From assembly GCA_028700115.1 (NCBI GenBank), contig JAQVTI010000003.1, positions 2,714 to 66,713 on the forward strand: DNA of 64,000 bases, given 5' to 3'. The notes under the pieces were generated by a model. That model made no database searches. It had not been told where the DNA came from and saw only the letters and a list, made by a program, of their open reading frames with translations. The translations under genes and the position numbers were made by a program. Positions within the stretch are counted from its first letter, which is position 1, and the number at the start of each line of letters is the position of its first letter. Shown here piece after piece: positions 1,375 to 59,813 of the stretch. This stretch comes from Candidatus Iainarchaeum sp. Its GTDB lineage: Archaea; Iainarchaeota; Iainarchaeia; Iainarchaeales; CSSED10-239.

Positions 1375-1665
1375 GTGATTAACATGATAAAAAAAACAAA
1401 AAAACAAGAAATTTGTGAAAAAATGGCAAAAGAAATAATAGATGAAGCAGATTTCTTGTTAGAAGATCACACAATTCCAAAAAATGTACAATATGTAATT
1501 AAAAATATGCAAGAAAGAATTAAAAAAAATTTATGCTCATTAGAAGTATCAAGTACATTATATAATCTAGAAGAAACAATTAGTAACATGACAGTTTCTG
1601 ATTGTAGATCATCTGTTTGGAACTTAATAAATAAACTAGAAAGTTTAAAGGAAAAAATGAAATGA
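1375..1665 (+). CDS. Small helical protein, UPF0147-like
   Basis: 96 aa. The motif DHTIPKNVQYVIKNM resembles the DxxVPRNIR signature of the archaeal UPF0147 family. A GGTGAT SD lies just upstream. The start could be GTG 1375 or ATG 1384. The stop overlaps the dp1 start (ATGA). Confidence 0.45.
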   Translation: MINMIKKTKKQEICEKMAKEIIDEADFLLEDHTIPKNVQYVIKNMQERIKKNLCSLEVSSTLYNLEETISNMTVSDCRSSVWNLINKLESLKEKMK

Positions 1666-6100: not shown

Positions 6101-6564
6101 TTACACATGATACAAATGTATTTGATAAAGGACCAAAAACATCTGCATATTTAACTATAAAATCAATGAAAGATAAAGTAGAAAGACAAGCAGAACTTCA
6201 AAAAAAAATAATGGCTGTTGATAATAAAGATGCACTTGAAAGATTATTACATTATCATTTATTCCCAGATATAATTGGAAATACAAGAGCATTTGCAAGA
6301 CAAAAACTAAGATGTGTAAAATGTAATACAAAATATAGAAGAATACCTTTATCAGGAAAATGTAATGTTTGTGGTGGTAAATTAATTATGACAATACATG
6401 AAGGATCTATTAAAAAATATCTTCAAATTGCAAAGGATTTAATTAAAAATTATGGTCTAAAACCATATCTTTATCAAAAATTAGAAATTGCAGAAGAAGA
6501 TATAAATTCTTTATTTAAAGATAAAGATACAGAAAATCAAAAAGCTTTATCTGACTTCTTTTAA
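3085..6564 (+). CDS. dp2: DNA polymerase II (PolD) large subunit DP2
   Basis: 1159 aa with the catalytic-type motif RRNVDGDQDS. Several CxxC zinc modules are present (CPKCKK..CFDCK, CNNCKK..CPVCK, CVKCNT..CNVCGG). An alternative start is ATG 3100. No intein-sized insertion is evident. Confidence 0.93.
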   Translation: MKKIKMNNPEKLKATKEIKEYYIKLTKDIDIAVEIAKNARSQGKDVSTNIETIPAAGIAEKTELLVGPSGVAEKYNQLWEKHHDRLKVTIEIFNLILDQKLGNIEDPEKRLEQAIRTALVIQTDGVVVSPLDGLPEIKISKNPDGSKYPDIYFAGPIRAAGGNAQTFPLLLADLARKKLHLDRYKPSQKEINRIIEETMIYQKDVVVRQQRVTENEIKIIAENCPICINSGPDSDVEVMVNRDMERIPTNRIRGAMCLVLIDGLYVRAMKIMKTSKKLELDWQWLEKLIKVKKTEKGFELKPSSKYIEGLAAGRPVFSYPLKNGGFRLRYGKARNNGLMAKAINPSTMYVLEEFIAVGTHGRIERPGKSLQYFPCDQIDGPIVRLKNKNVLKINTTEKAKEIVNQIEKILFLGDILIPVGDFKKSGHPLVKNGYVKEEFISEIKYLIKKGELEKNILKEILEFIENKTPYDAIELSLKYKIPLYPEYLNYYNLIELEELKILISKIRDSEKIYNENKIIGIKIKNNNVIKEILEKCGIEHTFLEKENNLEIKKENAYTLLKTLGSLNAKNPIEEFIDIIENKEKTNCEKLSIISGIKIKDKAGTFIGARMGRPEASHERILPGKPNVLFPLGHGFGNNRDMIKAIGKKADGAKPGDYGISDVEIKTYLCPKCKKIIFGNYCFDCKIQTKEIRYCNNCKKQMFEKICPVCKQETIYQYKHKINLDYLIQKASQNVNVGIPEKIKGVKGLVSGNKFCEPLEKGILRAKYDLYVFRDGTIRYEALNATITQFTAKELNLSIEKLKELGYKKDYLGNELKDENQRISLFPQDIIINDKAGEYFLKITHFIDDLLEKFYGLKQFYNKKTKEELIGELIIALAPHTSAGIVGRIIGYSKSRLAWGHPYFITAKRRNVDGDQDSMLLLMDGLLNFSEKYLSGGRGGRMDAPLAFTTIVNPYEIDDECYEMETVTEYPYEFYINAKNYGDANDKNLTYVDQILGTDDQYSCIKFTHDTNVFDKGPKTSAYLTIKSMKDKVERQAELQKKIMAVDNKDALERLLHYHLFPDIIGNTRAFARQKLRCVKCNTKYRRIPLSGKCNVCGGKLIMTIHEGSIKKYLQIAKDLIKNYGLKPYLYQKLEIAEEDINSLFKDKDTENQKALSDFF

Positions 6565-9531: not shown

Positions 9532-10569
9532 ATGGAATACGATTTAGAAGTTACAAGCACTGTTTTTAATTATATTATAAAAAATTTAAATTTAGAAATA
9601 AATTTAGGATATATAAATAATATACAAACTATTGCAGAAGATTTTTGGAGAATAAAAATACATAAAAAAACAACAAAAACATTATATATTAATCCAAAAG
9701 TTTGTTTTTTATCAGACTACAATGTAGAAATAATAGAAAATAAAGGGTTTGCAAAATATCTTAAAAAAAAATTAAATAATCAAAGAATCAAACAAATATA
9801 TCAAGATAAAAATAACAGAGTCGTTTGTTTTGAACTAGATCATTATAATTTAATATTTGAATTCTTTTCAAAATCTAATATAATTTTAACAGATAAAGAC
9901 TTTAAAATAATTACATCAAAACAAAAAGAAGAATGGAAAGATAGAACAATTAAAAAATTTGAAACATATAAATTCCCCGAAGGACAAAAAATAGATGAAA
10001 TTACAACTGAAGATATCTTAGATGATAAAAAACAAACTATAAAATATTTAAATAAAAAATACCAAATTGCCCCACATTATTTAGAAGAAATAATTAAAGA
10101 AAAGATAAATAAAAAAGAAATAATTAAAAAAATTAAAGAATTATATGAAATAGAAAATTCAAATATAGAAATTATTGAAAAAAATAATAAAAAAATTGCA
10201 ATAATTACTAAAGGAGAAAAAAAATTATATGAAAATATAGAAGAATATTTTTTAGAAAAAATTAAAAAAAATAAAACAATATCAAAAAATACAAAAATTG
10301 AAAAACTTGAAAAAATAATAAAAGAACAAGAAAAAAGTAAAATAAATTTTTTAGAAAAAATAAAAATATTGGAAAAAGAAGGCGAAATAATATATTCAAA
10401 TTACATATATATAGAAGAAATAAATAAAATTATAGAAAAAGCATTAAAACTAAAAATTACTGAAAAAGAAATTATAAAAAAAATAAATACTTATTTTAAA
10501 GAAAAAAATAAAAATATAAAAATTATGAAAATAGATCAAAAAAAGAAAACATATATTATAAATATATAA
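9532..10569 (+). CDS. NFACT-N domain protein (short Rqc2/FbpA-like)
   Basis: The N-terminus (INNIQTIAEDFWRIKIH...GFAKYLKKKLNNQRIKQIYQDKNNRVVCFEL...SNIILTD) follows the NFACT-N pattern and is followed by a K/E coiled coil. At 345 aa it has no NFACT-R-like C-terminal part. Confidence 0.5.
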   Translation: MEYDLEVTSTVFNYIIKNLNLEINLGYINNIQTIAEDFWRIKIHKKTTKTLYINPKVCFLSDYNVEIIENKGFAKYLKKKLNNQRIKQIYQDKNNRVVCFELDHYNLIFEFFSKSNIILTDKDFKIITSKQKEEWKDRTIKKFETYKFPEGQKIDEITTEDILDDKKQTIKYLNKKYQIAPHYLEEIIKEKINKKEIIKKIKELYEIENSNIEIIEKNNKKIAIITKGEKKLYENIEEYFLEKIKKNKTISKNTKIEKLEKIIKEQEKSKINFLEKIKILEKEGEIIYSNYIYIEEINKIIEKALKLKITEKEIIKKINTYFKEKNKNIKIMKIDQKKKTYIINI

Positions 10570-10605
10570 AATAAAATTAGATTGATTAGAAAATAAGGAA
10601 AATAA

Positions 10606-10866
10606 CTATTCCTTATTAACTTGATTTTCATCAACAATAAAAACATCGCTTACAGCTAAAACACTTTTATAAGGAACTTCAAGCATATTTCCAGATAAAC
10701 TTAATTTTTGGATAAATGCAGAAGCAGGATCTACTTCAACTAATATTGATTCTATTTCACCAGTTTGCTCATTAACCATTAAATCAATTAATCTACCGAT
10801 ATTATCTCCTCTATTTGTAATTAATTTTTTAGTTGCTAATTGTCTTGCGATTGCGTATTTATACAT
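10606..10866 (-). CDS. PRC-barrel domain protein
   Basis: 86 aa. The stretch KLITNRGDNIGRLIDLMVNEQTGEIESILVEV fits the G-x-hG-x-h-x-D-h-hh-D/N-x-x-x-G-x-I pattern of PRC barrels. Confidence 0.65.
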   Translation of the reverse strand: MYKYAIARQLATKKLITNRGDNIGRLIDLMVNEQTGEIESILVEVDPASAFIQKLSLSGNMLEVPYKSVLAVSDVFIVDENQVNKE

Positions 10867-11050
10867 ACTAACTCCTCATTTATAATTTTTAATAAATATT
10901 ATTTATTATTATGGTTACTAAATACATTTAAAAAGTAATCGGTTTAACAATCCAAAATTTATATAAAATTAAAGAAATAAACCAAACTAAAATATATATA
11001 AATAATAAAGTTTATATATGTAATGCATAATAACTAATAATATAATTAAA

Positions 11051-11290
11051 ATGTTGATAAATATGTTAGAAATTAAAGAAAATAAAAAAATCAATAAAAA
11101 AATGTTAATTATTATAATAATTGTATTAATTATAGGATTTATTTTAGGACTTTTAGTAAGTAATAATATAGATTTAGACACTAGTTGTAAATCAGAAAAA
11201 CAAGAAATAGATATATTAAATAAAGAAATTAATAGTTGTATAAATTCACTTAATAATTATGACACAATAAAAATAGAACAAGGTAATTAG
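11051..11290 (+). CDS. Small single-pass membrane protein (hypothetical)
   Basis: 79-aa ORF with one clear TM helix (MLIIIIIVLIIGFILGLLV). There is no recognisable family. Its end overlaps the stop of the convergent DUF373 gene. Confidence 0.3.
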   Translation: MLINMLEIKENKKINKKMLIIIIIVLIIGFILGLLVSNNIDLDTSCKSEKQEIDILNKEINSCINSLNNYDTIKIEQGN

Positions 11291-22324: not shown

Positions 22325-24067
22325 TCAAATAATTCTATGAAATAATTTATCCATATCTTTCATACTTAAAAAAATAACACTTGGTCTGCCATGTGCACAA
22401 ATAACACTATTATTAACCTTACTTAATTTTGAAATTAAATTTATTTGCTCAGAAATACTTAATTTACAATTTGCTTTTATAGATTGTTTACAAGACTTTA
22501 ATTTAATTAAATTATCTTTTAATTTAGAAAAAGACATCACATTATTTTTTAAATCATCTAAAACATTTATGAAATAATTTTTATCAAAAAGTTTATTTAA
22601 AAAAATTGGAATAGAAATTAAATTTATTGAAAAATTATCAATAATTTCAAAATTAAAACCAAGTTTTTTAATTAAATCTAAATTTTTATATAAAACCTCT
22701 GCTTGAGATTCATCTAAAGAAATATATATTGGAGAAATTAAATTTTGAAAATCTACACTTTCTGAAAATTTTAGTCTATTTTCTTCTAAGTTAATTCTTT
22801 CATCAGCAGCGTGTTGATCAATAATTAAAAATCCATCTTGGGTCTCACAAACAATATAAGTATTATGAATTTGCCCAACAATAGAAGTTATTTCTTTATC
22901 TAATAATTTTATATTTTTAAAAGAAGAATAATCATAAAAAGACTGTTGAGAATTATTAGAAGATAAATTAGTAAAAAAAGAATTTGGGGTAGAAAAATCT
23001 TTTAAATTAGAATAACTTAATTTAGTAGAAATATTTAAATTATTAGACAAATCAGACTTTGCAAAATAATTAAAATTACTAACATCATTAGAAATACTTT
23101 TACCTAGATGCTTATCTAAAATTTTTGTTAAATCTTTTCTAAGCTCGGATAAAAATAATAATTCATTAAATAATTTAACAAATCTTTTTTTGGGATGTAC
23201 ATTTACATCAACAGTAGTAGAATCTATATCTATAAATAAAATAAAAAAAGGCTTTTGTTGAATCATTAAATAATCTTTATAAGCACTTGTAATTGCTTTA
23301 TATATTTGAGAAGAAAAAACAAATCTATTGTTTATAAATAAATAACTATTTGGCAAAAAAATAGGTTTTGCAGGATTACTTAAAAAACCTTTTAACTTAA
23401 ATAAAGAATTATCTATATTTATAGGAATTGTCTTTAATTTAATTTCATTACCAAAAATTTGAATCATACGATTTTCTAAAGAAGTAGCTTGTAAATTTAT
23501 ATTTTTTTTCTCAGAAGAAAAATTGAAACTAATGTGAGGATACATTAAAGAATACGCTATAAAAACATCATATAATTTAGAAAACTCAAAAGATTTAGAT
23601 TTTAAAAATTTTTTTCTAACAGGAATATTTTCAAATAAATTTTTAATAATAAAAGTAGTTCCTTTAAGTGAAGGACAACTTTCTAAAACCCCATTATAAA
23701 AAGAATAACCCTCTCCAGAATTATTTGTAGATGAAATTATTTTTAAATCAGAAACTGCATTTATACTTGCTAATGCTTCTCCTCTAAAACCAAATGAATT
23801 TAAAGAAAAAAGATCATCTATAGACAAAAGCTTACTTGTAGTGTGTCTTTCTAAACAAATTTTTAAATCATCTTTAGAAATACCATTACCATCATCTTTA
23901 ATTTCTATAAGATCTATTCCTGAATTTTTAATAGAAATTATTATTTTATTAGCAAAAGCATCAATAGAATTTTCAATTAATTCCTTTAAAATATCTGCAG
24001 GAGATTCAATTACTTCTCCGGCACTAATTAAATTAATTGTATTATCATTTAATTTTTTAATAACCAT
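22325..24067 (-). CDS. mutL: DNA mismatch repair protein MutL (endonuclease type)
   Basis: GHKL ATPase motifs ELIENSIDA, DDGNGI and FGFRGEALAS are present. The C-terminal DQHAADERINLE matches DQHA(X)2E(X)4E, followed by CAHGRPS. Confidence 0.92.
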   Translation of the reverse strand: MVIKKLNDNTINLISAGEVIESPADILKELIENSIDAFANKIIISIKNSGIDLIEIKDDGNGISKDDLKICLERHTTSKLLSIDDLFSLNSFGFRGEALASINAVSDLKIISSTNNSGEGYSFYNGVLESCPSLKGTTFIIKNLFENIPVRKKFLKSKSFEFSKLYDVFIAYSLMYPHISFNFSSEKKNINLQATSLENRMIQIFGNEIKLKTIPINIDNSLFKLKGFLSNPAKPIFLPNSYLFINNRFVFSSQIYKAITSAYKDYLMIQQKPFFILFIDIDSTTVDVNVHPKKRFVKLFNELLFLSELRKDLTKILDKHLGKSISNDVSNFNYFAKSDLSNNLNISTKLSYSNLKDFSTPNSFFTNLSSNNSQQSFYDYSSFKNIKLLDKEITSIVGQIHNTYIVCETQDGFLIIDQHAADERINLEENRLKFSESVDFQNLISPIYISLDESQAEVLYKNLDLIKKLGFNFEIIDNFSINLISIPIFLNKLFDKNYFINVLDDLKNNVMSFSKLKDNLIKLKSCKQSIKANCKLSISEQINLISKLSKVNNSVICAHGRPSVIFLSMKDMDKLFHRII

Positions 24068-24078
24068 AAATATTCAAC

Positions 24079-26535
24079 TCAAATAATTTTTTTTTGTTCA
24101 TTCTTAAATAAAATATTTTTAGAAACATCAGATTTTAAAAAAACATCTTCCTCTAAATCTTTTTGAATTTCTAAAGCTCTATTTATAACAATATCATTAA
24201 TTCCAGACATTTTTGCAACTTGTATACCGTAACTTTTATCAATACCGCCTTCAATTAATTTATGATAAAAAGAAAGCTTTCCAGAATCTTCTTTTGCAAT
24301 AACATGATAATTTTTAATACCTAAAAACAAATCTTGCATTTTATTTAATAAATGATAATGTGTTGCCACCAAAGTTTTACAATTAACAAAATTATTCAAA
24401 TATTCTATAATAGACCAAGCCAAACTTAAACCATCATAAGTACTTGTACCTCTACCAACTTCATCTAAAATTACAAAACTTTTATTAGTTGCATTATTTA
24501 AAATATATGCAACTTCAGACATTTCAACTAAAAAAGTACTTTGTCCATGAATAATATCATCAGAAGCACCAACTCTAGTAAAAACAGCATCAATAAAACC
24601 AATTTCACTATCATTAGAAGGAATAAAACAGCCTGCATATGCTAAAATAATACTTATACAAACAGAACGCATATAACTACTCTTACCAGCCATATTTGGA
24701 CCAGTTATAATCATAGTTTTATTAGTTATATTTAAATTACAATCATTTGGAACAAAATCAGTTAATTTTTCAATAATTGGATGCCTTAAATCTTTAAAAT
24801 ATAAATGATCTGAATTATTTAATTTTGGTTTAAAATAATTATTCTCCAAACTAATTTGAGCATTTGAACAAATTACATCTAAAAAACCTATATTTTTAGA
24901 TATATCTAAAATATCTTTTTGATATTTTAAAACCTCTTTACAAATATCTAAAAAAATGTTATATTCAAGTTCTAATCTTTTCTCCTTAGCATTTAAAATT
25001 AAACTTTCTTTTTCAGAAAGAATTTTTGTTGTAAATCTTTCAGCATTAACTAAAGTTTGCTTTCTTTCAAAATCATTTGGAACTTGCTTAGCTTGCATTT
25101 TTGGAATTTCTATATAATATCCAAAAATTTTATTAAATTTTAATTTTAAAGACTTAATATTTGTTTCTAATTTTAATTTTTCTTCATACTCTAATAAAAA
25201 AGAATTTATAGATTTATGAATGTTAACTAAACTATAAAGTTCATTAGAAAAATTTGGTTTAATAAAATTACCTTCTCTAACACTAAAAGGAGGGTCTTGA
25301 ACAATAGAATTATCTATTAAAGAAATTAATTTATCTAAAGATTTTAAATTATTATTAATTGTTGAAAAATAAATTGAATTTAAATTATTTAAAATATTTT
25401 TAATTTTAGAAACAACTAATAAACTTTGTTTTAAAGAAATTAAATCTCTTGGATTAGAATTACCAAAACCAACTTTACTAATAATTCTTTCTATATCAGA
25501 AATATAACTTAAATTAGTTTTTAAATCTTCCAAAATATAAATATCATTTATAAATTCAGAAATACAATCATATTTATTATTATTATAAACTAAATCTAAA
25601 GAAGGATGTAATAAATCAAAATATAATTGTCTATAACCCATTGCAGTTTTAGTTTTATTAATAAAACCAAATAAACTATTTTTAAGATTATTAGAACTTA
25701 AACTATTTATAAGTTCTAAATTTTTTATAGTTTTTCGATCTAATTTTAAATATTTATTAAAAGAATAAGATTTAATTGACCTAATATAACTTAAATCAGA
25801 AAACTGGGTTTCTTTTAAATAATTTAAAGCATTACTACTAGAAATAATTATATGATTTTTAGAATCAATACCAAAAGATTCTAAAGAACTTAAAGAAAAA
25901 TGATCTAATAATTTCTGTCTAGATAAAACTAAATTTAAATCATCAGTATAATTTATAATAACTAAAGGAAGTGTTTTTTTAATCAAATCAACTTTATCAA
26001 AACTTTTTAAAATATTTTTAGACAATAATAATTCTTTTGGCTTTATTGAAGAAATTTCATTTAATAAACTAGAAAAATCATCAAATTCACAAACTTTAAA
26101 ATCACCTGTAGTTATATCTATTAATGAAAACCCATATATATTATTTACAAAAGAAATAGAACCTAGAAAATTATTTTCATAAGAATCACTAAAAAGAGTA
26201 CTTGGTGTAATAACTCTAATTACATCTCTTTTAACAAGACCTTTTGCAAACTTAGGATTTTCCATTTGTTCACAAATTACAACTTTTTTTCCAGATTTAA
26301 CTAATTTAGATATATATGGATCTATAGAGTGATATGGAATTCCAGCTAAAGGAGCTTCAGTTAAACCCTTTCCTCTTTTTGTTAAAGTTATATTTAATAT
26401 TCTTGAGGCTTCTTTAGCATCATCAAAAAACATTTCATAAAAATCCCCAGCTCTAAATAATAATATACCTTCTGGATATTTTTTTTTAGTTTCAACATAT
26501 TGTTTCATCATAGGTGTTAAAGATATATTGTTCAT
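24079..26535 (-). CDS. mutS: DNA mismatch repair protein MutS (bacterial MutS1 type)
   Basis: N-terminal mismatch-binding motif GDFYEMF, Walker A GPNMAGKSS and DEVGRGTSTYDG. It lies directly upstream of mutL on the same strand. Confidence 0.93.
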   Translation of the reverse strand: MNNISLTPMMKQYVETKKKYPEGILLFRAGDFYEMFFDDAKEASRILNITLTKRGKGLTEAPLAGIPYHSIDPYISKLVKSGKKVVICEQMENPKFAKGLVKRDVIRVITPSTLFSDSYENNFLGSISFVNNIYGFSLIDITTGDFKVCEFDDFSSLLNEISSIKPKELLLSKNILKSFDKVDLIKKTLPLVIINYTDDLNLVLSRQKLLDHFSLSSLESFGIDSKNHIIISSSNALNYLKETQFSDLSYIRSIKSYSFNKYLKLDRKTIKNLELINSLSSNNLKNSLFGFINKTKTAMGYRQLYFDLLHPSLDLVYNNNKYDCISEFINDIYILEDLKTNLSYISDIERIISKVGFGNSNPRDLISLKQSLLVVSKIKNILNNLNSIYFSTINNNLKSLDKLISLIDNSIVQDPPFSVREGNFIKPNFSNELYSLVNIHKSINSFLLEYEEKLKLETNIKSLKLKFNKIFGYYIEIPKMQAKQVPNDFERKQTLVNAERFTTKILSEKESLILNAKEKRLELEYNIFLDICKEVLKYQKDILDISKNIGFLDVICSNAQISLENNYFKPKLNNSDHLYFKDLRHPIIEKLTDFVPNDCNLNITNKTMIITGPNMAGKSSYMRSVCISIILAYAGCFIPSNDSEIGFIDAVFTRVGASDDIIHGQSTFLVEMSEVAYILNNATNKSFVILDEVGRGTSTYDGLSLAWSIIEYLNNFVNCKTLVATHYHLLNKMQDLFLGIKNYHVIAKEDSGKLSFYHKLIEGGIDKSYGIQVAKMSGINDIVINRALEIQKDLEEDVFLKSDVSKNILFKNEQKKII

Positions 26536-26976: not shown

Positions 26977-27501
26977 ATGATTAAAATAATAAAACTAGAT
27001 CATAGACCATTAAGAGACAAAAGAATTACAACTCACTGTGCATTAGTATCTAGAACTTTTGGAGCAGATGAATTTTTATATGCAGGTGTATGTGATAAAG
27101 AACTTGAAAAAAACATAATAAATACTAATGAAAGATGGGGAGATCTAGGATTTAAAATAAAATTTATTAAAGAACCATTGGAATTCGTTAAAAAATATAA
27201 AGGAAATGGAACTATCATACATCTTACTATGTATGGTGGTAAAATTTTAGAATATATTGAAAATATTAAAAAAAATAAAAAAGAAATGCTAATAATAATT
27301 GGGGGACCTAAAGTTCCAGGAGAATATTATAAACTTGCAGATTTTAATATAAGTGTTACTAATCAACCACATAGTGAAGTTGCAGCACTTGCAATAATTT
27401 TAAATTATATTAATCCAGAATATTTAGAAAAAGATTTGTTTAAAAGTAATATAAAAATAATTCCAAATAAAGACCATAAAAATGTTATTAACTTAAAATA
27501 G
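26977..27501 (+). CDS. trm56: tRNA (cytidine56-2'-O)-methyltransferase aTrm56 (SPOUT)
   Basis: LDHRPLRDKRITTHCALVSRTFGADEF matches the conserved aTrm56 N-terminus. The size is about 175 aa. Confidence 0.8.
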   Translation: MIKIIKLDHRPLRDKRITTHCALVSRTFGADEFLYAGVCDKELEKNIINTNERWGDLGFKIKFIKEPLEFVKKYKGNGTIIHLTMYGGKILEYIENIKKNKKEMLIIIGGPKVPGEYYKLADFNISVTNQPHSEVAALAIILNYINPEYLEKDLFKSNIKIIPNKDHKNVINLK

Positions 27502-27549
27502 TTTTGTAACTTAAATATATTATATTTTAATAAAAATATTTGTGATAAT

Positions 27550-28119
27550 ATGAATAAATTAAAAAAAGAACTATTAAATGATAAAAATACAATTAAATTT
27601 TTAGAACAAATTGCAGGACCGATTGCAATAGATGTTGTAAAAATTTTTAAAAAAGAAGCATTATCACCTGAAATGATTTCTAAAAAACTTGATGAAAAAA
27701 TTACTAATGTAAGAGCTACATTAAATAGTTTACATTACAGGGGAATTGCATGCTATAAAAAAACAAAAACTAATAACAATTTATATGAATTTCTATGGGA
27801 AATTAAATTTAAAAAAATTATAGAAAATATACATATTCAAGAAATAAAAAAATATAAAAAAATAGAAATGGATATTAATTCAAAAAGTACACATGATTAT
27901 TTTGTGTGTCCTAAAAAATGTATAGAAGTTCCTTTTGAAATTGCAGCAGCATATAATTTTAAATGTCCTAATTGTGATTCTAGTTTAGAAATGGTAGATA
28001 TAAAAAAAAGATTAGCATTACAAAAAAGAAAATTAAAAACAACAAAAGAAAATATTGAAAAATTAGAAATTCTTTTAGAAAAAATAAAAGACGATACAAA
28101 AGGATATATTTGTGAATAA
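27550..28119 (+). CDS. tfe: Transcription factor E (TFE, TFIIE-alpha homolog)
   Basis: N-terminal winged helix (ISKKLDEKITNVRATLNSLHYRGIACY) plus a zinc ribbon (CPKKC...CPNC). Confidence 0.75.
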   Translation: MNKLKKELLNDKNTIKFLEQIAGPIAIDVVKIFKKEALSPEMISKKLDEKITNVRATLNSLHYRGIACYKKTKTNNNLYEFLWEIKFKKIIENIHIQEIKKYKKIEMDINSKSTHDYFVCPKKCIEVPFEIAAAYNFKCPNCDSSLEMVDIKKRLALQKRKLKTTKENIEKLEILLEKIKDDTKGYICE

Positions 28120-28217
28120 ATTAATTAAATATATTAGATTTGTTTAAATAGTTTTTGGTACATAATTAATTTACTAATTATAAATAAATAAACTATTTAA
28201 AATTAATCTTATTTTTT

Positions 28218-28292
<75 letters not shown>

Positions 28293-28529
28293 TTATTTAT
28301 ACTAATTTTAAAAATTATAAAAATAAAGTAAGTAAACATAACCTAAACTCAATATATCTTGGACAAATATGCTAAATTGAAAAAATATTACTTAAAACTA
28401 AAAAAAAACTTGAAATTAAAAAAAAACATTAAAATAACTATTAAATTGCAAATAAAGCCAAAAATAAATGTATTTTAAAAATTAAAGACTAATTTAAATA
28501 TAAAAATCAATTATAAATATATTAAAAGT

Positions 28530-28792
28530 AGTAATTACCATGGTAATTACTTAAAAAATAATTTTAAAATAAAATAAAAAATAATATACTACATAAATTG
28601 TAATTTACTTAAAAATATAAAATTATTAAATAAAATTAAATTATATAATATAATTTAAAACAAAATATATTTATATATAAAAATAATAAAATTTATTAAA
28701 AATAAGACTTATAATTACAGTAATTACCATAATTAACTACAAATAATTACTGTAATTACCAAATACTTTAAAAACATTACGGTAATTACCAT
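28530..28792. promoter_or_regulatory. Array of GTAATTAC-core palindromic sites (candidate operator or origin-recognition repeats) flanking a nearly pure A/T stretch
   Basis: A 22-bp perfect palindrome, AGTAATTACCATGGTAATTACT, lies at 28530-28551. Three related ~20-bp units lie at 28711-28730 (ATAATTACAGTAATTACCAT), 28743-28762 (ATAATTACTGTAATTACCAA) and 28773-28792 (AACATTACGGTAATTACCAT), spaced 32 and 30 bp apart. A TATA-like CTTTAAAAA at 28766-28774 sits 23-31 bp before ATG 28797. Confidence 0.6.
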
Positions 28793-28796
28793 ATAT

Positions 28797-29300
28797 ATGA
28801 ATTTAATAAATACTATAAAAAATATATTTAAAAAAAAAGTTAAACATCTTGAAAAAGATTTAAATTATAATTCTAATTTAAATCAAAATGAATTAGATAA
28901 TAATAAAAATGAATTAAATAATAATAAAATACAAATTAATGAAAATATAGAAAATCAAATATATATTAAAAAAACAACAGATAATAAAAATATACATGAA
29001 ATACAAACAATAACTATACAAGAATTAAAAAATAATTTAAATACAATTTGGGATATTATTAAAATAAAAGAAAATACTCAAGCAGAACATATAATTAAAT
29101 CAATTCCTAGTGATAACTGGACAACTATGGATGAATTAAGACAAAATATAAAACTTGAATTTGGTATTGAATATAAAAATGAAAAAAGTTTATATCCTTA
29201 TTTAAAAACATTAACAGATATAAATTTAATAAAAGTAAATAATACTGGAAAAAAAAGAACATGGAAAAAAAATATTATTATATTAGATAATAATAAATAA
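28797..29300 (+). CDS. Hypothetical protein with an N/K-rich N-terminal half and a probable C-terminal winged-helix domain
   Basis: 167 aa. The C-terminal segment WTTMDELRQNIKLEFGIEYKNEKSLYPYLKTLTDINLIKVNNTGKKRTW looks like a wHTH. The ATG lies 5 bp after the last palindromic repeat. Confidence 0.45.
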   Translation: MNLINTIKNIFKKKVKHLEKDLNYNSNLNQNELDNNKNELNNNKIQINENIENQIYIKKTTDNKNIHEIQTITIQELKNNLNTIWDIIKIKENTQAEHIIKSIPSDNWTTMDELRQNIKLEFGIEYKNEKSLYPYLKTLTDINLIKVNNTGKKRTWKKNIIILDNNK

Positions 29301-29315
29301 TATTTTATAAAATAA

Positions 29316-29909
29316 TTAATTTACTAAAGAATTATATTTTTCATAAAAAGAAGATAATAAATCTGATTTTTTATAAACTTCTTTAAACCAATTAAAATTT
29401 GTTATTTTATTACATTCTTTTAATATATATTTTATATAATCTTTATTATTATTATTAGTTCTAATAATATAATCTAATTCTGTTAATAATAAACTAGATT
29501 TGTTATCTAAATTAATAATATTATAATTACTTAAAAAATTTTCTAAACATTCAATTACACTTTCTAAATCAACTTCTAATTTTTCAATAATATATTCTAC
29601 TTTCCAATCACCTTTATTTTTCCATAAATGTGCTGGATTTTCACCAGTTTTAAAATAATTTATTATTAAATTTTCATAATTTAATGGAATAATAAAACTA
29701 TTTTTTCCAGGTTTTAAATGAGGTATATCTGAAAGTAAACCTTTTCTTGTATAAGTATATACTTTTTTATTTTTTTTAGTTACATTTTGTTGATAACCAT
29801 ATAATGATCTAAATACTTTTTGATATAAATAAGATGAATGATTTATATCTTTATTAAATATAAATTTATATTTAATATAATTAGAAATAATTTTATCCAT
29901 CATAGACAC
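29316..29909 (-). CDS. Hypothetical protein
   Basis: 197-aa ORF preceded by a GGGGTG SD-like sequence. I recognise no family. Confidence 0.45.
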   Translation of the reverse strand: MSMMDKIISNYIKYKFIFNKDINHSSYLYQKVFRSLYGYQQNVTKKNKKVYTYTRKGLLSDIPHLKPGKNSFIIPLNYENLIINYFKTGENPAHLWKNKGDWKVEYIIEKLEVDLESVIECLENFLSNYNIINLDNKSSLLLTELDYIIRTNNNNKDYIKYILKECNKITNFNWFKEVYKKSDLLSSFYEKYNSLVN

Positions 29910-30026
29910 CCCTTACTTCTTGTATTAATTATTTAATAATAATTAAAATTTTATTATGTATATAATATATATAATATATATATTTATATATATTATAAAA
30001 ATATAAAAAAATAAAATTAGATATTA

Positions 30027-30386
30027 TTATTTTCTTGAATATTTACTTCTATAACCAATATATTTTTTTCTTATAGCAGCTTCTTTTGATTTTTCTTCAA
30101 AATTATCTTCATTATGTACAATTTCTTTTTTTCTATTAGTAATAGGTACATTACCTGCATTTATTAATAATATATCATCAGCAGATATTACTTTATTATA
30201 AGGTATACTATGTTCTGTAATTATTTTTTTAGCTTCTATTTTAGAATTTACTTTTAATGGTTGTGTTGTAATTGTTTCAATTACACCTTGTTCTAAATTT
30301 ACAATTAAATCGTGAACTTTACCTCTATAAGTTGCATCTGTTTGATATATATCCATTCCAAATAATTTAGATATTCTTGTAGTCAT
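30027..30386 (-). CDS. PRC-barrel domain protein with a basic C-terminal tail
   Basis: MTTRISKLFGMDIYQTDATYRGKVHDLIVNLEQGVIETI fits the PRC-barrel pattern. The start is set at ATG 30386 because a GGAGGAAT SD lies 7 nt upstream. The ORF track extends to 30449. Confidence 0.6.
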   Translation of the reverse strand: MTTRISKLFGMDIYQTDATYRGKVHDLIVNLEQGVIETITTQPLKVNSKIEAKKIITEHSIPYNKVISADDILLINAGNVPITNRKKEIVHNEDNFEEKSKEAAIRKKYIGYRSKYSRK

Positions 30387-30580
30387 TTTTATTCCTCCAA
30401 TATAAATATATTTTAATTTATTAAATATTATACTATAAAAGTTATTCAAAACATTTATATATGTTTTTATTTAAATAAACAAATTTTTATGTTTAATTAA
30501 GTTTTATTTCTAAAATTATTAAAAAATAAAAAAAAAATAAAAAAAATAAAGAAACAATACAGGAAGTTAGGGGTATCTCT

Positions 30581-30955
30581 TTATAGTTTGTTAATTTCTT
30601 TTAAAATTAAATCACATTTATTGATTAAATTATTAATTTCTCCAATTTCTTCTTTAAAATTTAAATATTCTTTAAATTCTTTATTATTTTTATAATTTCC
30701 ATTTTCTATAATTTTATTATATATTTTCATTTTTGTATTAATTTTTTTATTTAATTTATTTAATTTATTTTGTAATTTTTTTTTATAAAATGTTAATTTT
30801 AATTTTACTATTTTTATCTGATTTGGTTTAATAAATATTCTTTGCATATTATTTATATGTGTATATTTTTTACTAATAAATTCTAATTTTTTATTAAATT
30901 TATTTATATTTTTATTAATAACCATAATATCACTTTTTAAATTTTTTATATCCAA
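30581..30955 (-). CDS. Hypothetical K/N-rich coiled-coil protein
   Basis: 124-aa ORF with heptad-like low-complexity sequence. It lies between the PRC-barrel gene and the recombinase gene on the same strand. Confidence 0.35.
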   Translation of the reverse strand: MDIKNLKSDIMVINKNINKFNKKLEFISKKYTHINNMQRIFIKPNQIKIVKLKLTFYKKKLQNKLNKLNKKINTKMKIYNKIIENGNYKNNKEFKEYLNFKEEIGEINNLINKCDLILKEINKL

Positions 30956-30986
30956 GATATTTTGTATTTAATATATTTTAAAATAA

Positions 30987-31832
30987 TTATAAATTATCTA
31001 ATGGGTTTTTTATTTTTTTTAGTTTATTTGTATTTACTTTTGTATATATTTGAGTTGTATTTAAATTTGTATGCCCTAATAATTGTTGAATATATCTAAT
31101 ATTTACATCATTTTCTAAAAGAGATGTTGCAAATGAATGTCTTAAAGTATGTGGAGATACTTTTTTATTTATTCCTGATTGTTTTGCAGATTCTTTTAAA
31201 AATTTTTGAATAGTATCTACAGATAAATTTGCACCTTTACTTGTACAAAATAAATATTTTGATTTAATTATATTTTCTCTTTTTTTTAAATATTTTCTAT
31301 ATTTTTCAATCCATTTTTTAGATAATATAATTATTCTATCTTTATTTCCTTTTCCACTAACTACTTTTCCAACTGATTCTATAAAATCTAAATCATCTAT
31401 TTTCATATTTACACATTCTGATATTCTTGTGCCTGTTGAAAATATAAATTCTATAATTAATTTATTTCTTTTATTTTTTGTATTTTTTATTAATAATTTA
31501 ATTTCATCGTTTGTTAATGTTGTTGGTAGTTTTTTTGATTTTTTTGGAAGTTTTATATCTATATTTATATTTTTTTTAAGATATATTTTATAATAATGAT
31601 TAAATATAGAAATTATTAAATTAATTGTAGTAGAGCTTATTTTTTTAATATTTTTAATGTATGATAAATAATTAATAATATCTTTTGATTCTATATTATT
31701 TATATCTTTTTGTATATATTTTTCAAATAAATCTAAATATAAACAATAAATATCAATAGTATTTTTACTATATCCTTCTATATTTAATGAATTTTTAAAA
31801 TTTTCTATATTTTTTGAATAATTTTTATTCAT
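30987..31832 (-). CDS. Tyrosine recombinase, XerA/XerC/D-like
   Basis: An N-terminal SAM-like core-binding domain is present. The catalytic residues appear in order: STGTRISE (Arg), GKGNKDRII (Lys), HTLRHSFAT (HxxR) and LGHTNLNTTQIYTKV (His/Tyr). Confidence 0.88.
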   Translation of the reverse strand: MNKNYSKNIENFKNSLNIEGYSKNTIDIYCLYLDLFEKYIQKDINNIESKDIINYLSYIKNIKKISSTTINLIISIFNHYYKIYLKKNINIDIKLPKKSKKLPTTLTNDEIKLLIKNTKNKRNKLIIEFIFSTGTRISECVNMKIDDLDFIESVGKVVSGKGNKDRIIILSKKWIEKYRKYLKKRENIIKSKYLFCTSKGANLSVDTIQKFLKESAKQSGINKKVSPHTLRHSFATSLLENDVNIRYIQQLLGHTNLNTTQIYTKVNTNKLKKIKNPLDNL

Positions 31833-32085
31833 ATTTTTCTTTTTTTCTATGTAATCTATAAATTATAATATAGATATGTTTATTAAGTAATTCAATATTC
31901 TATATTAATTATATTAAATTAATTTTAATATTTAAATAAATTTATAAACTTTTTTATTTTTTTAAAGAAATATTTACTTTTCAAACAAAAGCATATAAAA
32001 ACATATTAGTGTACATTTTATAATTAAATATATTTTTTATAATTTTTTAAATTAAGGGGTTTAAAATTATAATATACATATATAA

Positions 32086-32625: not shown

Positions 32626-35238
32626 ATGAATATGTTAACTAAAATTAAAAAAATTACCCAAGTTAAAAAAAGAAAAGGTGAAATTGTTTTTTTTGATAAA
32701 AATAAAATTTCTCTTGCAATTGAAAAAGCAATGAAATCTGTAGATTCTTTTGATGAAAATAAAAATAAAGATTTAACTGAAAAAGTTATTTTAATTTTAG
32801 AATCTAAATTTATAAATAAAATTCCATCTGTGGAAGATGTTTCTGATGTAATTGAATATGTTTTAATTGCTTCTGAGCTTATAAATGTTGCAAAATCTTT
32901 TATTTTATATAGAGAAGAAAGAAGAAAATTAAGAGAATCTTATATTGAAGAGATAGATTGTGATATTGTAAAAGATTTAAAGGAGAAAAAAATTTCAATT
33001 ACAAAACAAGCAATTAATGTTTTAAATAATTCAAATCAATTTAAAGATTTAGGTTTAATTATTTTTTTAGATAGATATTCTATAAAATCTAAAAAAAATG
33101 AAATTGTAGTAGGCGATTTAGTTGTAGTTATTTCAAAAAATGATCCTAAATATCCAAAAAAAGATATAGGTATTGTTAAAGATATTTCTGAAAATAAATT
33201 TGATGTTAAATTACATATGTTAACTGGTTTATATGCTGAAAAAGAAAATAATTATGAATTTAATCAAAAATTAAGTTTTTGTGAAAAACCATCTGAATCT
33301 GCAAATGATGTTTATAAAAGAGTTGCAAAAGCAGTTGCATCTGTAGAAAAAGATGATTTATTAAAAACAAAATGGTTTGATGAATTTTATTATATGTTAA
33401 AAAATAATCATATATCTCCTGGTGGTAGAATTTTAACTGGTGCAAGTATAGATGAATTAGGTTATACTTCTAATTTAACTTTATATAATTGTTATGTTAT
33501 TCCTTCTCCAAAAGATTCAAGAAAATCAATTGTAAGAGATGCACTTTATAACATGGTTGAAATTTTTTCAAGAGGTGGGGGGGTTGGTTTATCTCTTTCT
33601 ACATTAAGACCTTTATTTGCATATGTAAAAGGAGTTCATGGTAGATCTTCAGGTTCTGTTTCTTGGGGTGGTTTATATTCTTATGTAACTGCTTTAATTG
33701 AACAAGGAGGTTCAAGAAGAGGAGCTTTAATGCTTATGCTTGATGATTGGCATCCAGATTTAATTTCTTTTATTGAATCTAAAACTAAAACAGGCACTTT
33801 AGAACATGCTAATATATCTGTAAAAGTTTCAGATAAATTAATGCAAGCTATAAAAAATGATGATGATTGGTATTTTGAATTTCCAGATTATGAAAATATA
33901 AATTATAAAGATATTTATGATTCTGAATGGGATGGTGATTTAAATTCTTGGAAAGAAAAAGGTTACCCTACAAAAATTTATGGTTCTATAAAAGCAAAGG
34001 ATATTTGGAATAAAATAATTTTTTCTGCATGGAAAAGTGCAGAACCTGGTGTTGTTTTTATGGAAAGGTATAATAAAATGAGTAATAGTTATTATTATAA
34101 TAAAATTATTGCAACAAATCCATGTGGTGAACAAGGATTACCTGCTTGGGGTGTTTGTAATTTAGGTCATTTAAATTTAGCATCTTTTGCAGAATATATT
34201 GGACAAGATGATGTTGGCCCTCTTTATGAGCTTAATTTTGAAAAGCTTAAAAAAGCTGCAAGTGTTTTAACTAGATTTTTAGATAATGTTATTGATTTAA
34301 CACCTTATTTTTTTGAAGAAAATAAAAATGTACAAAAATCTGAAAGAAGAATTGGTGGTGGAACTTTAGGTCTTGCAGAACTTTTAATTAAGTTAAGATT
34401 AAAATACGGTTCTCCTGACAGTATAAATTTAATTAATAAAATTTATAGTTTAATTACAACTGAAATGTATTTAACTTCTACACATATTTCTGAAGAAAAA
34501 GGTTTTTTTCCAAATTTTGATAAAGAAAAATTTTTAGCAAGTAAGTTTATACAAAATTTACCTAAAGATGTTTATGAGAAAATAAAAGAAAAAGGTATTA
34601 GAAATGTATCTTTAACAACACAAGCACCAACTGGTTCAACTGGGACAATGATTGGTACATCTACTGGAATCGAACCTTATTTTGCTTTTAAATTTTATAG
34701 ACAATCAAGACTTGGTTTCCATGAAGTAAACATACCTATTGCTCAAGATTATGAAAAAAATGGAGTTCTTCCAGATTTTTTTGTATCTGCAAATGATTTA
34801 AGTCCAGAAGATCATGTTAAAGTCCAAGCTGCAATACAAAGATGGACTGATTCATCTATTAGTAAAACCGCAAATGTTCCTGCAAATTTTACTGTTGAAC
34901 AAACTGCAAAATTATATGAGCTTGCATATGATTTAGGTTGTAAAGGTGTTACAATTTATAGAGATTCATCTAGAGATGAGCAAGTTCTTTCAATAAATAA
35001 AGATCAAGAAAAGATAAATCAAAATGCAATTAATAAAAAAACACAAGATAAATTAAATTTTAATAAAAAAAATAATGTTATTTTTGAAGATAAAAAAGAA
35101 AATGAAGATGTTGTTTATGGAGCTGAAGCAGGAAATATATGCCCTGTTTGTAAAAAAGGAAAAATGATTAAACTAGGTGGTTGTACAGAGTGTTCTGCAG
35201 GTTGTGGTTTTAAGGGTTCTTGTGATATGAAGCAATAA
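32626..35238 (+). CDS. nrdJ: Adenosylcobalamin-dependent ribonucleotide reductase (class II, NrdJ)
   Basis: N-terminal ATP-cone (VKKRKGEIVFFDKNKISLAIEKA), active-site NPCGEQ and SISKT motifs, and a C-terminal CPVC...CTEC zinc ribbon. Confidence 0.9.
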   Translation: MNMLTKIKKITQVKKRKGEIVFFDKNKISLAIEKAMKSVDSFDENKNKDLTEKVILILESKFINKIPSVEDVSDVIEYVLIASELINVAKSFILYREERRKLRESYIEEIDCDIVKDLKEKKISITKQAINVLNNSNQFKDLGLIIFLDRYSIKSKKNEIVVGDLVVVISKNDPKYPKKDIGIVKDISENKFDVKLHMLTGLYAEKENNYEFNQKLSFCEKPSESANDVYKRVAKAVASVEKDDLLKTKWFDEFYYMLKNNHISPGGRILTGASIDELGYTSNLTLYNCYVIPSPKDSRKSIVRDALYNMVEIFSRGGGVGLSLSTLRPLFAYVKGVHGRSSGSVSWGGLYSYVTALIEQGGSRRGALMLMLDDWHPDLISFIESKTKTGTLEHANISVKVSDKLMQAIKNDDDWYFEFPDYENINYKDIYDSEWDGDLNSWKEKGYPTKIYGSIKAKDIWNKIIFSAWKSAEPGVVFMERYNKMSNSYYYNKIIATNPCGEQGLPAWGVCNLGHLNLASFAEYIGQDDVGPLYELNFEKLKKAASVLTRFLDNVIDLTPYFFEENKNVQKSERRIGGGTLGLAELLIKLRLKYGSPDSINLINKIYSLITTEMYLTSTHISEEKGFFPNFDKEKFLASKFIQNLPKDVYEKIKEKGIRNVSLTTQAPTGSTGTMIGTSTGIEPYFAFKFYRQSRLGFHEVNIPIAQDYEKNGVLPDFFVSANDLSPEDHVKVQAAIQRWTDSSISKTANVPANFTVEQTAKLYELAYDLGCKGVTIYRDSSRDEQVLSINKDQEKINQNAINKKTQDKLNFNKKNNVIFEDKKENEDVVYGAEAGNICPVCKKGKMIKLGGCTECSAGCGFKGSCDMKQ

Positions 35239-35261
35239 ATTTAAATTAAAAGGAGATTATT

Positions 35262-35708
35262 ATGTTTAATATAAAAAGATTAACAGAAAGTGCTAAATTA
35301 CCTGAAAAAAATAATTTTACAGATGCTGGATATGATGTTTTTTCTGATCAAAATATTATTATCCCTGCTGGAAAAAGAGAAACCATTTCAATAGGTATTT
35401 CTTTTTCTTTTGATAAGCCAAATTATTTAAGAGAAAATGAAACTATTTATTTAAGAGTTGCTCCAAGAAGTGGTCTTGCATCTAAAAAAGGTATTGATGT
35501 TTTTGCAGGTGTTATTGATTTAGATTATAGAGGCGAATTAAAAGTATGTTTATTTAATTCTTCTGATATTGATTTTGAAATTAAAAAAGGAGATAAAATT
35601 GCTCAGATTATCCCTACAATTATTTTAAATTCAGAAATTAAGGAAGTAAATTTTTTAGATCAAACAGATAGAGGAGAAAAAGGTTTTGGTTCTTCTGGAA
35701 ATAAGTAA
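35262..35708 (+). CDS. dut: dUTP diphosphatase (trimeric dUTPase)
   Basis: The motifs DAGYDV, PRSGLASKKGI, GVIDLDYRGE, GDKIAQ and RGEKGFGSSG appear in canonical order. A GGAG SD is present. Confidence 0.9.
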   Translation: MFNIKRLTESAKLPEKNNFTDAGYDVFSDQNIIIPAGKRETISIGISFSFDKPNYLRENETIYLRVAPRSGLASKKGIDVFAGVIDLDYRGELKVCLFNSSDIDFEIKKGDKIAQIIPTIILNSEIKEVNFLDQTDRGEKGFGSSGNK

Positions 35709-45631: not shown

Positions 45632-46612
45632 ATGTCAATTCAAGATACTTTTCCTTGGACTGAAAAATATAGACCCAAGATTTTAGATAATGTTATAGGT
45701 CAAAAACATATTCTTCCAAGATTAAAAAGTTATGTTTCTAAAAAAACACTTCCAAATATGCTTTTTGCAGGTCCTCCTGGTGTTGGAAAAACTTGTTGTG
45801 CTATTGCTATTGCTAGAGAAATTTTTGGAAATACTTTTAATCAAGATTTTTTAGAATTAAATGCTTCTGATGAAAGAGGAATTAATGTTGTTAGAGGCGC
45901 TATTAAAGATTTTTCTAGAACATTACCATTAGGTGCAAATTTTAAAATTATTTTTTTAGATGAAGCTGATGCATTAACTACAGATGCTCAGCAAGCTTTA
46001 AGAAGGACTATGGAAAAATATACTGGAACTGTTAGATTTATTTTAAATGCAAATTATTCTTCAAAACTGATTTCACCAATTCAAAGTAGATGTTCTTTAT
46101 TTAAATTTAGGCCTCTTTTAAAAGAAGATATTTTAGAAGGTTTAAATAAAATTATAATTTCAGAAAATTTAGATATGTCTTCAGAAGCAAAGGATGCTTT
46201 GTTTGATGTTTGCGAAGGAGATATGAGAACTGCTACTAATTATCTTCAAGCTGCAAGTTCTGTTGACAAAAAAATTTCAGTTGAAACAATTTATGAAGTT
46301 TCAAATTCTGCTCAACCAAAAGATGTAATTACAATGATTGAAAAATGTCTTAATGGTAATTTTTTAGAAGCTCGTAAATTTTTAGAAAATATGATTTTTG
46401 AGCAAGGTCTTTCTGGTGAAGATATAATTAATCAAATTTATAAAAAATTAATTAGTATGTCTGAAGATAAAATTGATATTTCTACTAAAATACAAATTAT
46501 TGATAAAATTGCAGAAATTAATTTTAGATTAGTTGAAGGGGCCAATGATCGTATACAATTAGAAGCATTACTTGCACAAATTATATTTATTGCTTCAAAA
46601 AAAGGTGATTAA
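45632..46612 (+). CDS. rfcS: Replication factor C small subunit
   Basis: PWTEKYRP, GPPGVGKT, DEADALT and SRC motifs appear in RFC order. Confidence 0.93.
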   Translation: MSIQDTFPWTEKYRPKILDNVIGQKHILPRLKSYVSKKTLPNMLFAGPPGVGKTCCAIAIAREIFGNTFNQDFLELNASDERGINVVRGAIKDFSRTLPLGANFKIIFLDEADALTTDAQQALRRTMEKYTGTVRFILNANYSSKLISPIQSRCSLFKFRPLLKEDILEGLNKIIISENLDMSSEAKDALFDVCEGDMRTATNYLQAASSVDKKISVETIYEVSNSAQPKDVITMIEKCLNGNFLEARKFLENMIFEQGLSGEDIINQIYKKLISMSEDKIDISTKIQIIDKIAEINFRLVEGANDRIQLEALLAQIIFIASKKGD

Positions 46613-57097: not shown

Positions 57098-59751
<2,654 letters not shown>

Positions 59752-59813
59752 TTTTTCTCTTTTTTTATTTTTTTATTTTAAATTATTTTAATTATATCTA
59801 AAAGGTTATTTTT

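Follow-up and report, generated by a model that had tools for sequence, protein, structure and literature searches.

The 64-kb window analyzed here (the whole stretch of 64,000 nucleotides) comes from a DPANN archaeon, Candidatus Ainarchaeum/Iainarchaeota, with a genome of 21% GC, and its gene content includes aTrm56, TFE-alpha, the PolD subunits DP1 and DP2, RFC, and XerA. Within it, a 503-bp spacer (28294–28796; 87.9% A+T overall) lies between an initiator tRNA gene and a gene for a 167-amino-acid winged-helix protein, and this spacer holds an array of an 8-bp palindromic box, GTAATTAC, that is the subject of this study. Two distal boxes form a perfect palindrome, an A/T stretch follows, and three proximal boxes surround what appears to be the promoter of the winged-helix gene (Table 1). 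The tRNA is assigned as the initiator from sequence features, namely an A1:U72 pair and an anticodon stem closed by three G:C pairs, which upholds the placement of the spacer given in an earlier note that was made from the letters of this DNA alone. The coordinates in that note, including those of the palindrome, the three proximal units, the TATA-like element, and the ATG, were all correct. Its description of a 504-bp, almost pure A/T spacer fits the inner 159 bp, with just 7 G/C, but not the spacer as a whole. Likewise, it had called the spacer the longest intergenic region of the window, but a 723-bp gap between large open reading frames (ORFs) at 10567–11289 is longer; because this gap contains an 86-amino-acid PRC-barrel-like ORF, the spacer after the tRNA is plausibly the longest truly noncoding stretch.

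The GTAATTAC box is strongly enriched at this locus. Nine copies were observed in the window versus 1.21 ± 0.99 expected, a count that none of 100 shuffles reached, and five of the nine fall within 259 bp of the spacer. The motif ATTACNGTAATTACC is represented by three exact and four overlapping near-matches, all at 28710–28790, versus 0.82 expected. The remaining four GTAATTAC copies are isolated and no other noncoding repeat array was found in the 64-kb window, in agreement with the earlier impression that there is no second motif cluster. The three related proximal units start at 28711, 28743, and 28773, in steps of 32 and 30 bp, and box 2 ends 6 bp before the TATA-like element.

Table 1. 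Features of the array, its flanking genes, and the surrounding strand-composition switch (window coordinates)
Feature	Position	Strand	Remark
Interval of strand-composition switch	27500..31250		third-codon skews
Initiator tRNA-Met (CAT)	28217..28293	+	left border of spacer
Conserved single-copy element AAACTCAATATATCTTGGACAAA	28345..28367	+	family consensus AAACAC.AA.TCTTGGACA
Distal box pair	28530..28551		two GTAATTAC boxes 12 bp apart (28531–28538, 28543–28550), forming the perfect 22-bp palindrome AGTAATTACCATGGTAATTACT
A/T spacer	28552..28710		7 G/C in 159 bp; candidate unwinding element
Proximal box 1	28712..28727		TAATTAC-A-GTAATTAC, 15-bp dyad, core 28720–28727
Proximal box 2	28744..28759		TAATTAC-T-GTAATTAC, core 28752–28759, directly upstream of the TATA-like element (B recognition element side)
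TATA-like element (putative)	28766..28774	+	CTTTAAAAA, about 23–27 bp upstream of ATG 28797
Proximal box 3	28776..28789		ATTACGGTAATTAC, core 28782–28789, between the TATA-like element and ATG; most conserved box
Iainarchaeota-specific winged-helix protein	28797..29300	+	167 amino acids, ATG 28797
Convergent gene	29316..29909	-	197 amino acids, always syntenic with the winged-helix gene
XerA tyrosine recombinase	30987..31832	-	passes NCBIfam XerA equivalog cut-off; in conserved neighborhood

Conservation of the box was assessed at 80 species-representative genome loci (about 80 species, 20–49% GC; ±10 kb per locus), with six further contigs reached via protein homologues; L numbers below are our labels for individual loci. 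GTAATTAC was kept in 76 of the 80 loci, with 217 boxes (5.6 per kb) in the 500 bp upstream of the orthologous ATG, density shoulders extending from −2.5 to +1 kb around the gene, and about 0.03 per kb, the base-composition expectation, beyond these limits. The prospect raised in the earlier note, that the motif would occur at similar density in other DNA, was thus not borne out within the DNA examined. The core is invariant across the full range of GC contents, while the remaining spacer has diverged. Box-to-box distances cluster at 10–12, 19–23, 30–33, 39–42, 51–52, and 61–63 bp, and the best spacing period is 10.3 bp (158 spacings, Rayleigh R = 0.77; R = 0.75 with only the 42 distinct arrangements). 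Since the spacings are multiples of this period, the boxes face one side of the helix. A chance origin of the array is effectively excluded, and from its sequence and conservation it is almost certainly a protein-binding array.

The detail of the array varies among clades. The extended unit in the clade of the window is ATAATTAC-N-GTAATTAC, and the last box, with the clade consensus TTAAAATAATTACGGTAATTACTATAT, lies at a median of 18.5 bp from the ATG. The 20-bp core of the distal palindrome, GTAATTACCATGGTAATTAC, recurs in L005, L012 (Forterrea), and L014, and other relatives have two to three distal boxes about 21 bp apart. Altogether, arrays comprise 5 to 12 boxes spread over 0.3 to 5 kb, coding DNA included. 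In the spacer following the stop codon of the winged-helix gene, three GTAATTACT copies are spaced 20–21 bp apart (L005 6571–6620, L012 10307–10356), and five boxes about 18–23 bp apart lie upstream of Trm56 in L007 (2099–2190). In L003 (4329–4367 and 6074–6123), boxes occur within the Trm56 coding sequence and within the N-terminal coding region of the winged-helix gene itself, where GTAATTAC is read as Ser-Asn-Tyr codons. Furthermore, one subclade (L029, L031, and L032) has two genes, for a glycosyltransferase and for tRNA-dihydrouridine synthase (Dus), inserted between TFE and the winged-helix gene, and 5–8 boxes persist inside the inserted coding sequences (−2100 to 0 from the winged-helix ATG). 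The presence of boxes within inserted coding DNA and, in some species, within the 3′ spacer and ahead of Trm56 argues that they do more than serve one operator, and these extra clusters resemble, by analogy, the site clusters around origins or centromeres.

Position relative to the gene is equally constant. In nearly all of the approximately 80 orthologous promoters, a TTTAAA/TTTATAA element has one box immediately before it and another between it and the ATG, with the last box 12–30 bp before the start codon. The TATA-like element and the transcription start are assigned from sequence, and the mRNA is probably leaderless or nearly so, since the element lies about 23–27 bp before the ATG. A site between TATA and the start is the classical position of archaeal repressors. 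The reading of the array as an operator for autoregulation, offered in the earlier note, is thereby strengthened as to box position, its conservation in about 80 species, and a winged-helix product, while binding and repression stay predictions; on these grounds, the array very likely serves as a promoter operator. The features expected of an autoregulated winged helix-turn-helix (wHTH) repressor, sites flanking TATA before the repressor's own gene and a product with the appropriate fold, are present, and sequence membership in a described regulator family is absent.

The 167-amino-acid protein has exactly the sequence of a hypothetical protein from a Candidatus Ainarchaeum metagenome-assembled genome (MAG). 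In its AlphaFold model, a short N-terminal helix that carries an NIF motif is followed by a disordered low-complexity linker and then by a C-terminal winged helix (residues 73–165) with a predicted local distance difference test score (pLDDT) of >90, which substantiates the earlier description of a winged-helix-like ORF. Foldseek matches were to the DNA-binding domains of Fur, SmtB/ArsR, BlaI, PadR, and KAT6A WH (probability 1.0, E of about 5e-3). The fold comparison proposed in the earlier note therefore returned generic DNA-binding wHTH proteins, none specific to Orc1, Cdt1, or WhiP. About 100 homologues were found, none with a Pfam domain, and an exhaustive search of 1.84 billion representative proteins gave 35 clusters only; all 80 genome loci with the gene, like the six further contigs, are of the Iainarchaeota/Diapherotrites type. 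The protein had no Pfam or NCBIfam hit at threshold (the best, PadR at E = 0.05, was below the cut-off), no sequence membership in the MarR, ArsR, PadR, Lrp/AsnC, or TrmB families, and no match of its profile to Protein Data Bank (PDB) sequences. Across an alignment of 43 sequences, nineteen positions of the C-terminal domain (residues 85–158) never vary, among them most of Y.NEKSLYPYLKTLTD, a putative DNA recognition region. Gene and boxes co-occur strictly across the loci examined. Because an invariant motif always adjoins a gene with an invariant recognition region, we name the 167-amino-acid protein as the probable binder of the boxes.

A second line of evidence concerns strand composition. 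Third-codon-position skews were used to separate coding-strand from chromosome-strand effects, and whichever way the genes are oriented, the + strand is enriched in A and C up to about 29 kb and in T and G from about 30 kb on. A change-point fit placed the switch in AT skew (AT3) at 29,750 (27.5–31.3 kb) and that in GC skew (GC3) at 31,000 (r = 0.21 and 0.25), independent of gene strand, with a five-fold fall in the AT3 residual versus a no-switch model. The skew regime reaches at least 27 kb on each side, and the change from negative to positive GC skew has the polarity of a cumulative GC-skew minimum, i.e., origin-type. This polarity rule is in line with the related Forterrea genome, whose skew-predicted origin adjoins cdc6 (PMC5905446). 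Of the 36 relatives for which each side extends 7 kb or more, 11 show a flip of this polarity when core genes are included, and no relative shows the reverse. With conserved core genes excluded, 22 of 36 step the same way versus 1 opposite, and there are 12 full sign flips versus 1 (Wilcoxon 3e-7, a value inflated because related species are not independent); the complete AR10 genome (L086) is among the flipping relatives. Where the step is clear, it falls within −1 to +2 kb of the winged-helix gene in 17 of 20 relatives. The skew reversal that had been said to coincide with the spacer is thus real, of origin polarity, placed to within about 1–2 kb, and repeated at the same locus in many relatives. 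By nearest-neighbor duplex energy, no 160-bp stretch of the window is less stable than 28544–28703. Several others of the least stable 100- to 300-bp stretches also cluster at 28.5–32 kb, on the side of the fitted change point, among them the spacer before the PRC-barrel gene (29916–30030) and the divergent XerA/CobA spacer (31560–31960).

The earlier note had alternatively read the repeats as origin recognition box (ORB)-like initiator sites flanking an unwinding element. Part of this reading stands: the repeats (28531–28550 and 28720–28789) do flank the least stable 160 bp, and the array coincides with the strand-bias switch, with Forterrea contrary or undecided. The rest does not, as the ORB core is missing from the boxes, orc1/cdc6 was not found in their vicinity, and the layout is found in one clade. 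Using reference ORB sequences (PMC1904270), neither the TTCC...GAA core nor the G-string was found in the boxes, and TTCCANTGGAAA with up to 2 mismatches gave 22 scattered hits in the window versus 39 expected, none in the spacer. No orc1/cdc6 was recognized on reading the translations of the 64-kb window, and none was returned by a regular expression for Walker A plus sensor-2 in the window or in 86 loci. A tblastn search with an approximate orc1 query gave weak Walker-A-region hits only, including the CDC48 gene of the window, so that none was seen within ±10 kb in about 80 relatives. Pfam tables of neighbors contained no orc1/cdc6, and approximately 6 kb of extra contig flanks encoded SecDF at the left end and a DHH protein at the right end but no cdc6.

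We lean toward the explanation that the phased array, most likely bound by the adjacent protein, autoregulates the promoter and lies in or beside a noncanonical replication origin. The origin component is proposed because the skew flip at the locus recurs in relatives and the spacer is the least stable in the window; on balance, we would place an origin within about 2 kb in this genome, while it is doubtful that the boxes are functionally needed for initiation. In the proposed mechanism, the winged-helix protein would occupy boxes 2 and 3, which bracket the TATA element, and occupancy of box 3 would cover the site of TFB and RNA polymerase. Since box 3 lies between TATA and the start of a probably leaderless mRNA, such occupancy would block TBP, TFB, and RNA polymerase and so autoregulate the gene. 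The distal pair, on the same DNA face and about 17 helical turns away across the unstable A/T spacer, may act together with the proximal boxes if the DNA is looped or wrapped. The module, at or within about 2 kb of the origin-polarity switch, would be part of, or directly beside, the chromosomal replication origin, and the winged-helix protein would in that case be an origin-associated factor outside the classical Orc1/ORB arrangement. A bolder version, in which array and gene form a self-contained, Orc1-unlinked Iainarchaeota origin module whose protein would mark, and help fire or organize, its own neighboring origin, is decidedly unlikely; its logic would be that of WhiP at Sulfolobus oriC3 or of UBP/ucm, without sequence relationship.

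Several observations weigh against this explanation, in addition to the missing ORB core and the missing orc1/cdc6 linkage. Across the phylum the GC3 signal is weaker (18/36 versus 6/36), and many relatives have a right-hand skew that drops to about 0 without reversing. The two-cluster layout of distal cluster, A/T spacer, and proximal cluster is found only in the clade of the window; most clades have no box farther than about 110 bp from the ATG and neither a distal cluster nor an A/T spacer. In Forterrea, the sole relative with a published origin, the origin predicted from cumulative GC skew falls beside cdc6 (PMC5905446). The Forterrea winged-helix locus is near 770 kb of 839,632 bp, i.e., about 69 kb from that origin if the deposited record starts there, and its local skew is too weak to display a flip. 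As to the binder, the convergent 197-amino-acid protein, Orc1, or another factor could also bind the boxes. The data, covering the 64-kb window and ±10 kb per relative, are also compatible with a genome-wide regulon, which the protein may have.

The most serious competitor is a pure transcriptional operator, in which the boxes only autoregulate the winged-helix gene, perhaps by looping, the skew switch has nothing to do with them, and replication starts elsewhere, beside cdc6. The bracketing of TATA ahead of the ATG in nearly all species, the compact arrays of most clades, the origin reported next to cdc6 in Forterrea, and the lack of a nearby orc1 would all follow. However, a transcription factor without other targets within ±10 kb in 80 genomes would regulate itself alone, as no boxes occur at other promoters within the DNA examined. 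An operator also leaves unexplained why boxes persist within inserted genes, beyond the stop codon of the winged-helix gene, and ahead of Trm56, as well as a 300- to 600-bp noncoding stretch conserved in very compact genomes. Moreover, a random locus would show a switch in just a few percent of 20-kb windows, and here 17 of 20 clear steps coincide with the locus, without exception in polarity. We consider an operator and nothing else unlikely. More improbable is a canonical archaeal origin with diverged ORB/mini-ORB sites bound by Orc1/Cdc6 around an unwinding element. Dyad-containing repeats on both sides of the least stable A/T stretch and a switch of origin polarity are what it predicts, ORBs differ in length and sequence from lineage to lineage, and their clusters can sit inside genes, as in the dp1 coding region next to the Thermococcales oriC (PMC1904270). 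Nevertheless, the ORB pattern is not enriched, the box is a perfect 8-bp palindrome where ORB is polar, it strictly co-occurs with the winged-helix gene and its promoter, and orc1/cdc6 is linked in none of about 80 species.

Alternatively, the boxes may be a centromere-like or tethering site comparable to ParB/parS or Noc, the conserved N-terminal helix and long disordered linker of the protein connecting origin-proximal boxes to a partner ATPase, the division machinery, or the membrane. Palindromic boxes clustered near a probable origin and tolerated inside genes, the protein architecture of short conserved motif, linker, and DNA-binding domain, and XerA and a PRC-barrel gene in the neighborhood are in keeping with this idea, which is entirely inferential and slightly less probable still than a canonical origin. 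No ParA/MinD/SegA-type ATPase is conserved beside the gene, the protein has no ParB-type HTH or CTPase domain and so no ParB/parS membership, and the promoter overlap is more simply explained by autoregulation. A mobile-element remnant, with a tRNA attachment site, a small regulator, and an integrase, was considered in view of the tRNA gene, A/T-rich region, small unknown genes, and tyrosine recombinase all lying within 3.5 kb, but the conserved synteny effectively refutes it: the genes have retained their order by vertical descent throughout the phylum, the recombinase scores above the XerA equivalog cut-off, tblastn gave no phage match, and the skew regime is at least 27 kb long on each side. 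The boxes were also rejected as a Xer/dif site; dif is a single 28-bp site at the terminus with two 11-bp imperfect inverted arms and a 6-bp spacer (PMC2958812), whereas the boxes are multicopy 8-mers and the switch has origin-type, not terminus, polarity. The single-copy TTGGACA element was dismissed as dif as well, as it has no conserved second arm and is not consistently palindromic.

Archaeal promoter-occluding winged-helix autorepressors include MDR1 of Archaeoglobus, Phr of Pyrococcus, and Lrs14-type proteins. Like them, the locus has a small wHTH gene directly downstream of its own dyad sites, which overlap or follow TATA and are multiple and could bind cooperatively. Unlike them, it has no MarR, ArsR, PadR, or Lrp membership, has 5–12 boxes phased at 10.3 bp and dispersed even into coding DNA, lacks another target nearby, and coincides with a strand-bias switch. 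WhiP is encoded by a gene that adjoins its origin, oriC3 of Sulfolobus. The ORB/mini-ORB origins of Pyrococcus, Sulfolobus, and Aeropyrum (PMC1904270) also share repeats flanking a melting A/T stretch, a skew minimum, and an adjoining gene for a DNA-binding protein, and the Thermococcales oriC (dp1) shares extra site clusters inside neighboring genes, but here the symmetric 8-mer is unrelated to TTCC...GAA, orc1/cdc6 is unlinked, and the adjacent protein is a 167-amino-acid single winged helix without an AAA+ domain. UBP, a non-initiator protein, binds an essential origin motif in Sulfolobus (PMC12141716), and the idea of a lineage-specific non-Orc1 protein with a short conserved motif in or beside an unwinding element is common to WhiP, UBP/ucm, and the present locus. 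No homology was detected, however; the fold hits are generic wHTH, not Cdt1/WhiP or UBP, and in contrast to the hundreds of UBP sites, the boxes are confined to a single locus in the DNA covered. ParB/parS of bacteria and plasmid iteron or centromere arrays likewise have palindromic sites clustered near an origin, inside genes, helically phased, and autoregulating the operon of the binder, but here there is no ParB fold, CTPase domain, partner ATPase gene, or Rep protein, and the chromosome is archaeal.

We found no description of the motif or of the winged-helix protein family in the literature, nor of the origin of the complete AR10 genome, and to our knowledge little is known of how DPANN archaea start or organize chromosome replication. 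The locus thus adds a phylum-wide cis element, invariant from 20 to 49% GC and paired with an uncharacterized winged-helix family, and a conserved landmark at an origin-type skew switch without a linked orc1 gene. If the origin role is true, Sulfolobus UBP/WhiP would no longer be the only example of lineage-specific non-Orc1 proteins acting at origins of archaea but would be joined by a second, a question explicitly raised by the UBP authors (PMC12141716). Were the self-contained module true, the box array would be a sequence marker for locating origins in uncultured DPANN genomes; were the array an autoregulatory operator only, it would still be a clean new transcription factor/operator pair, of an ordinary kind. 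In either case, the locus is a practical marker to orient and check Iainarchaeota assemblies. Contigs labeled Candidatus Vampirococcus lugosii, Bacilli bacterium, Thaumarchaeota, and Micrarchaeota also carry the winged-helix gene (L007 = NZ_JAEDAM010000051.1, L011, L044, L070, and L071), L007 with the full Iainarchaeota locus, and are probably mis-binned in public MAGs.

A metagenome scan for three boxes within about 90 bp returned at least 120 matching stretches; among the 80 loci listed, one was an Iainarchaeota locus, with both conserved genes. The other loci examined (L096, L126, L137, and L166) were unrelated tandem repeats of other organisms, and the scan is therefore uninformative on the regulon.

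The conserved gene order around the array, shared by the 80 genome loci and the six contigs, is Trm56, TFE, initiator tRNA, 300–600 bp spacer, winged-helix gene (+), a gene for about 200 amino acids (−), PRC-barrel gene (−), and XerA (−), and the succession from tRNA through 300–600 bp of noncoding DNA to the winged-helix gene is kept in at least 55 of 76 related loci. The convergent 197-amino-acid protein, a candidate alternative binder of the boxes, has a confident AlphaFold model (pLDDT 88; predicted template modeling score, 0.82), no Pfam or NCBIfam family, and no significant match in a fold search against the PDB (best E 0.13); the model makes a new fold combination possible. DNA-metabolism genes in the wider surroundings comprise MutL/MutS, ribonucleotide reductase, dUTPase, PolD DP1/DP2, the RFC small subunit, and topoisomerase (22325–26535, 32626–35708, 1662–6564, and 45632–46612). 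Such surroundings are suggestive and fit an origin-proximal neighborhood, and they are not counted as evidence.

The spacer has further sequence features. The asymmetric, single-copy element AAACAC.AA.TCTTGGACA, about 20 bp long, is present in 44 of 55 loci. In the clade of the window it lies 30–150 bp downstream of the initiator tRNA, and in other clades upstream of it, about 235–265 bp before the tRNA 3′ end and right after the TFE stop codon. The sole ORF of the spacer, a 39-amino-acid lysine-rich frame with a TTG start, was rejected as coding, its length not being conserved in relatives. An Rfam scan of the whole window found four tRNAs only and no RNA family in the spacer, and the A+T content, which in every relative is higher in the spacer than around it, argues against a structured RNA gene. 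A scan for bacterial-type promoters and terminators, a type not applicable to archaea, showed no excess versus shuffles. Three of the five copies of TTACTTAAAA in the window fall in the spacer (28388, 28547, and 28605), one of them overlapping the right end of the palindrome.

In the distal spacer of higher-GC relatives (L004 5560–5940, L041 9439–9840, L079 9335–9700, L061, L063, and L046), a second repeat, CTCAC(T/A)(T/A)T or (A/C)TTACTTT, in some cases followed by ..GAAAC, is present in 4–7 same-strand copies, and the 7-mer ACTCACT is about 46-fold enriched over the flanks in these spacers; the repeat may represent a half-site form of the box or some other, perhaps initiator, site. Elsewhere in the window, a 12-nucleotide tandem repeat (57096–57395; about 15–25 copies) encodes a KDET repeat in a grpE-like gene (57098–57874). 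The grpE-dnaK-dnaJ block (57098–60971) has third-position AT skews of +0.07, +0.10, and −0.02 versus about −0.2 in its neighbors, and a higher GC content, and is compatible with a foreign (bacterial) origin.

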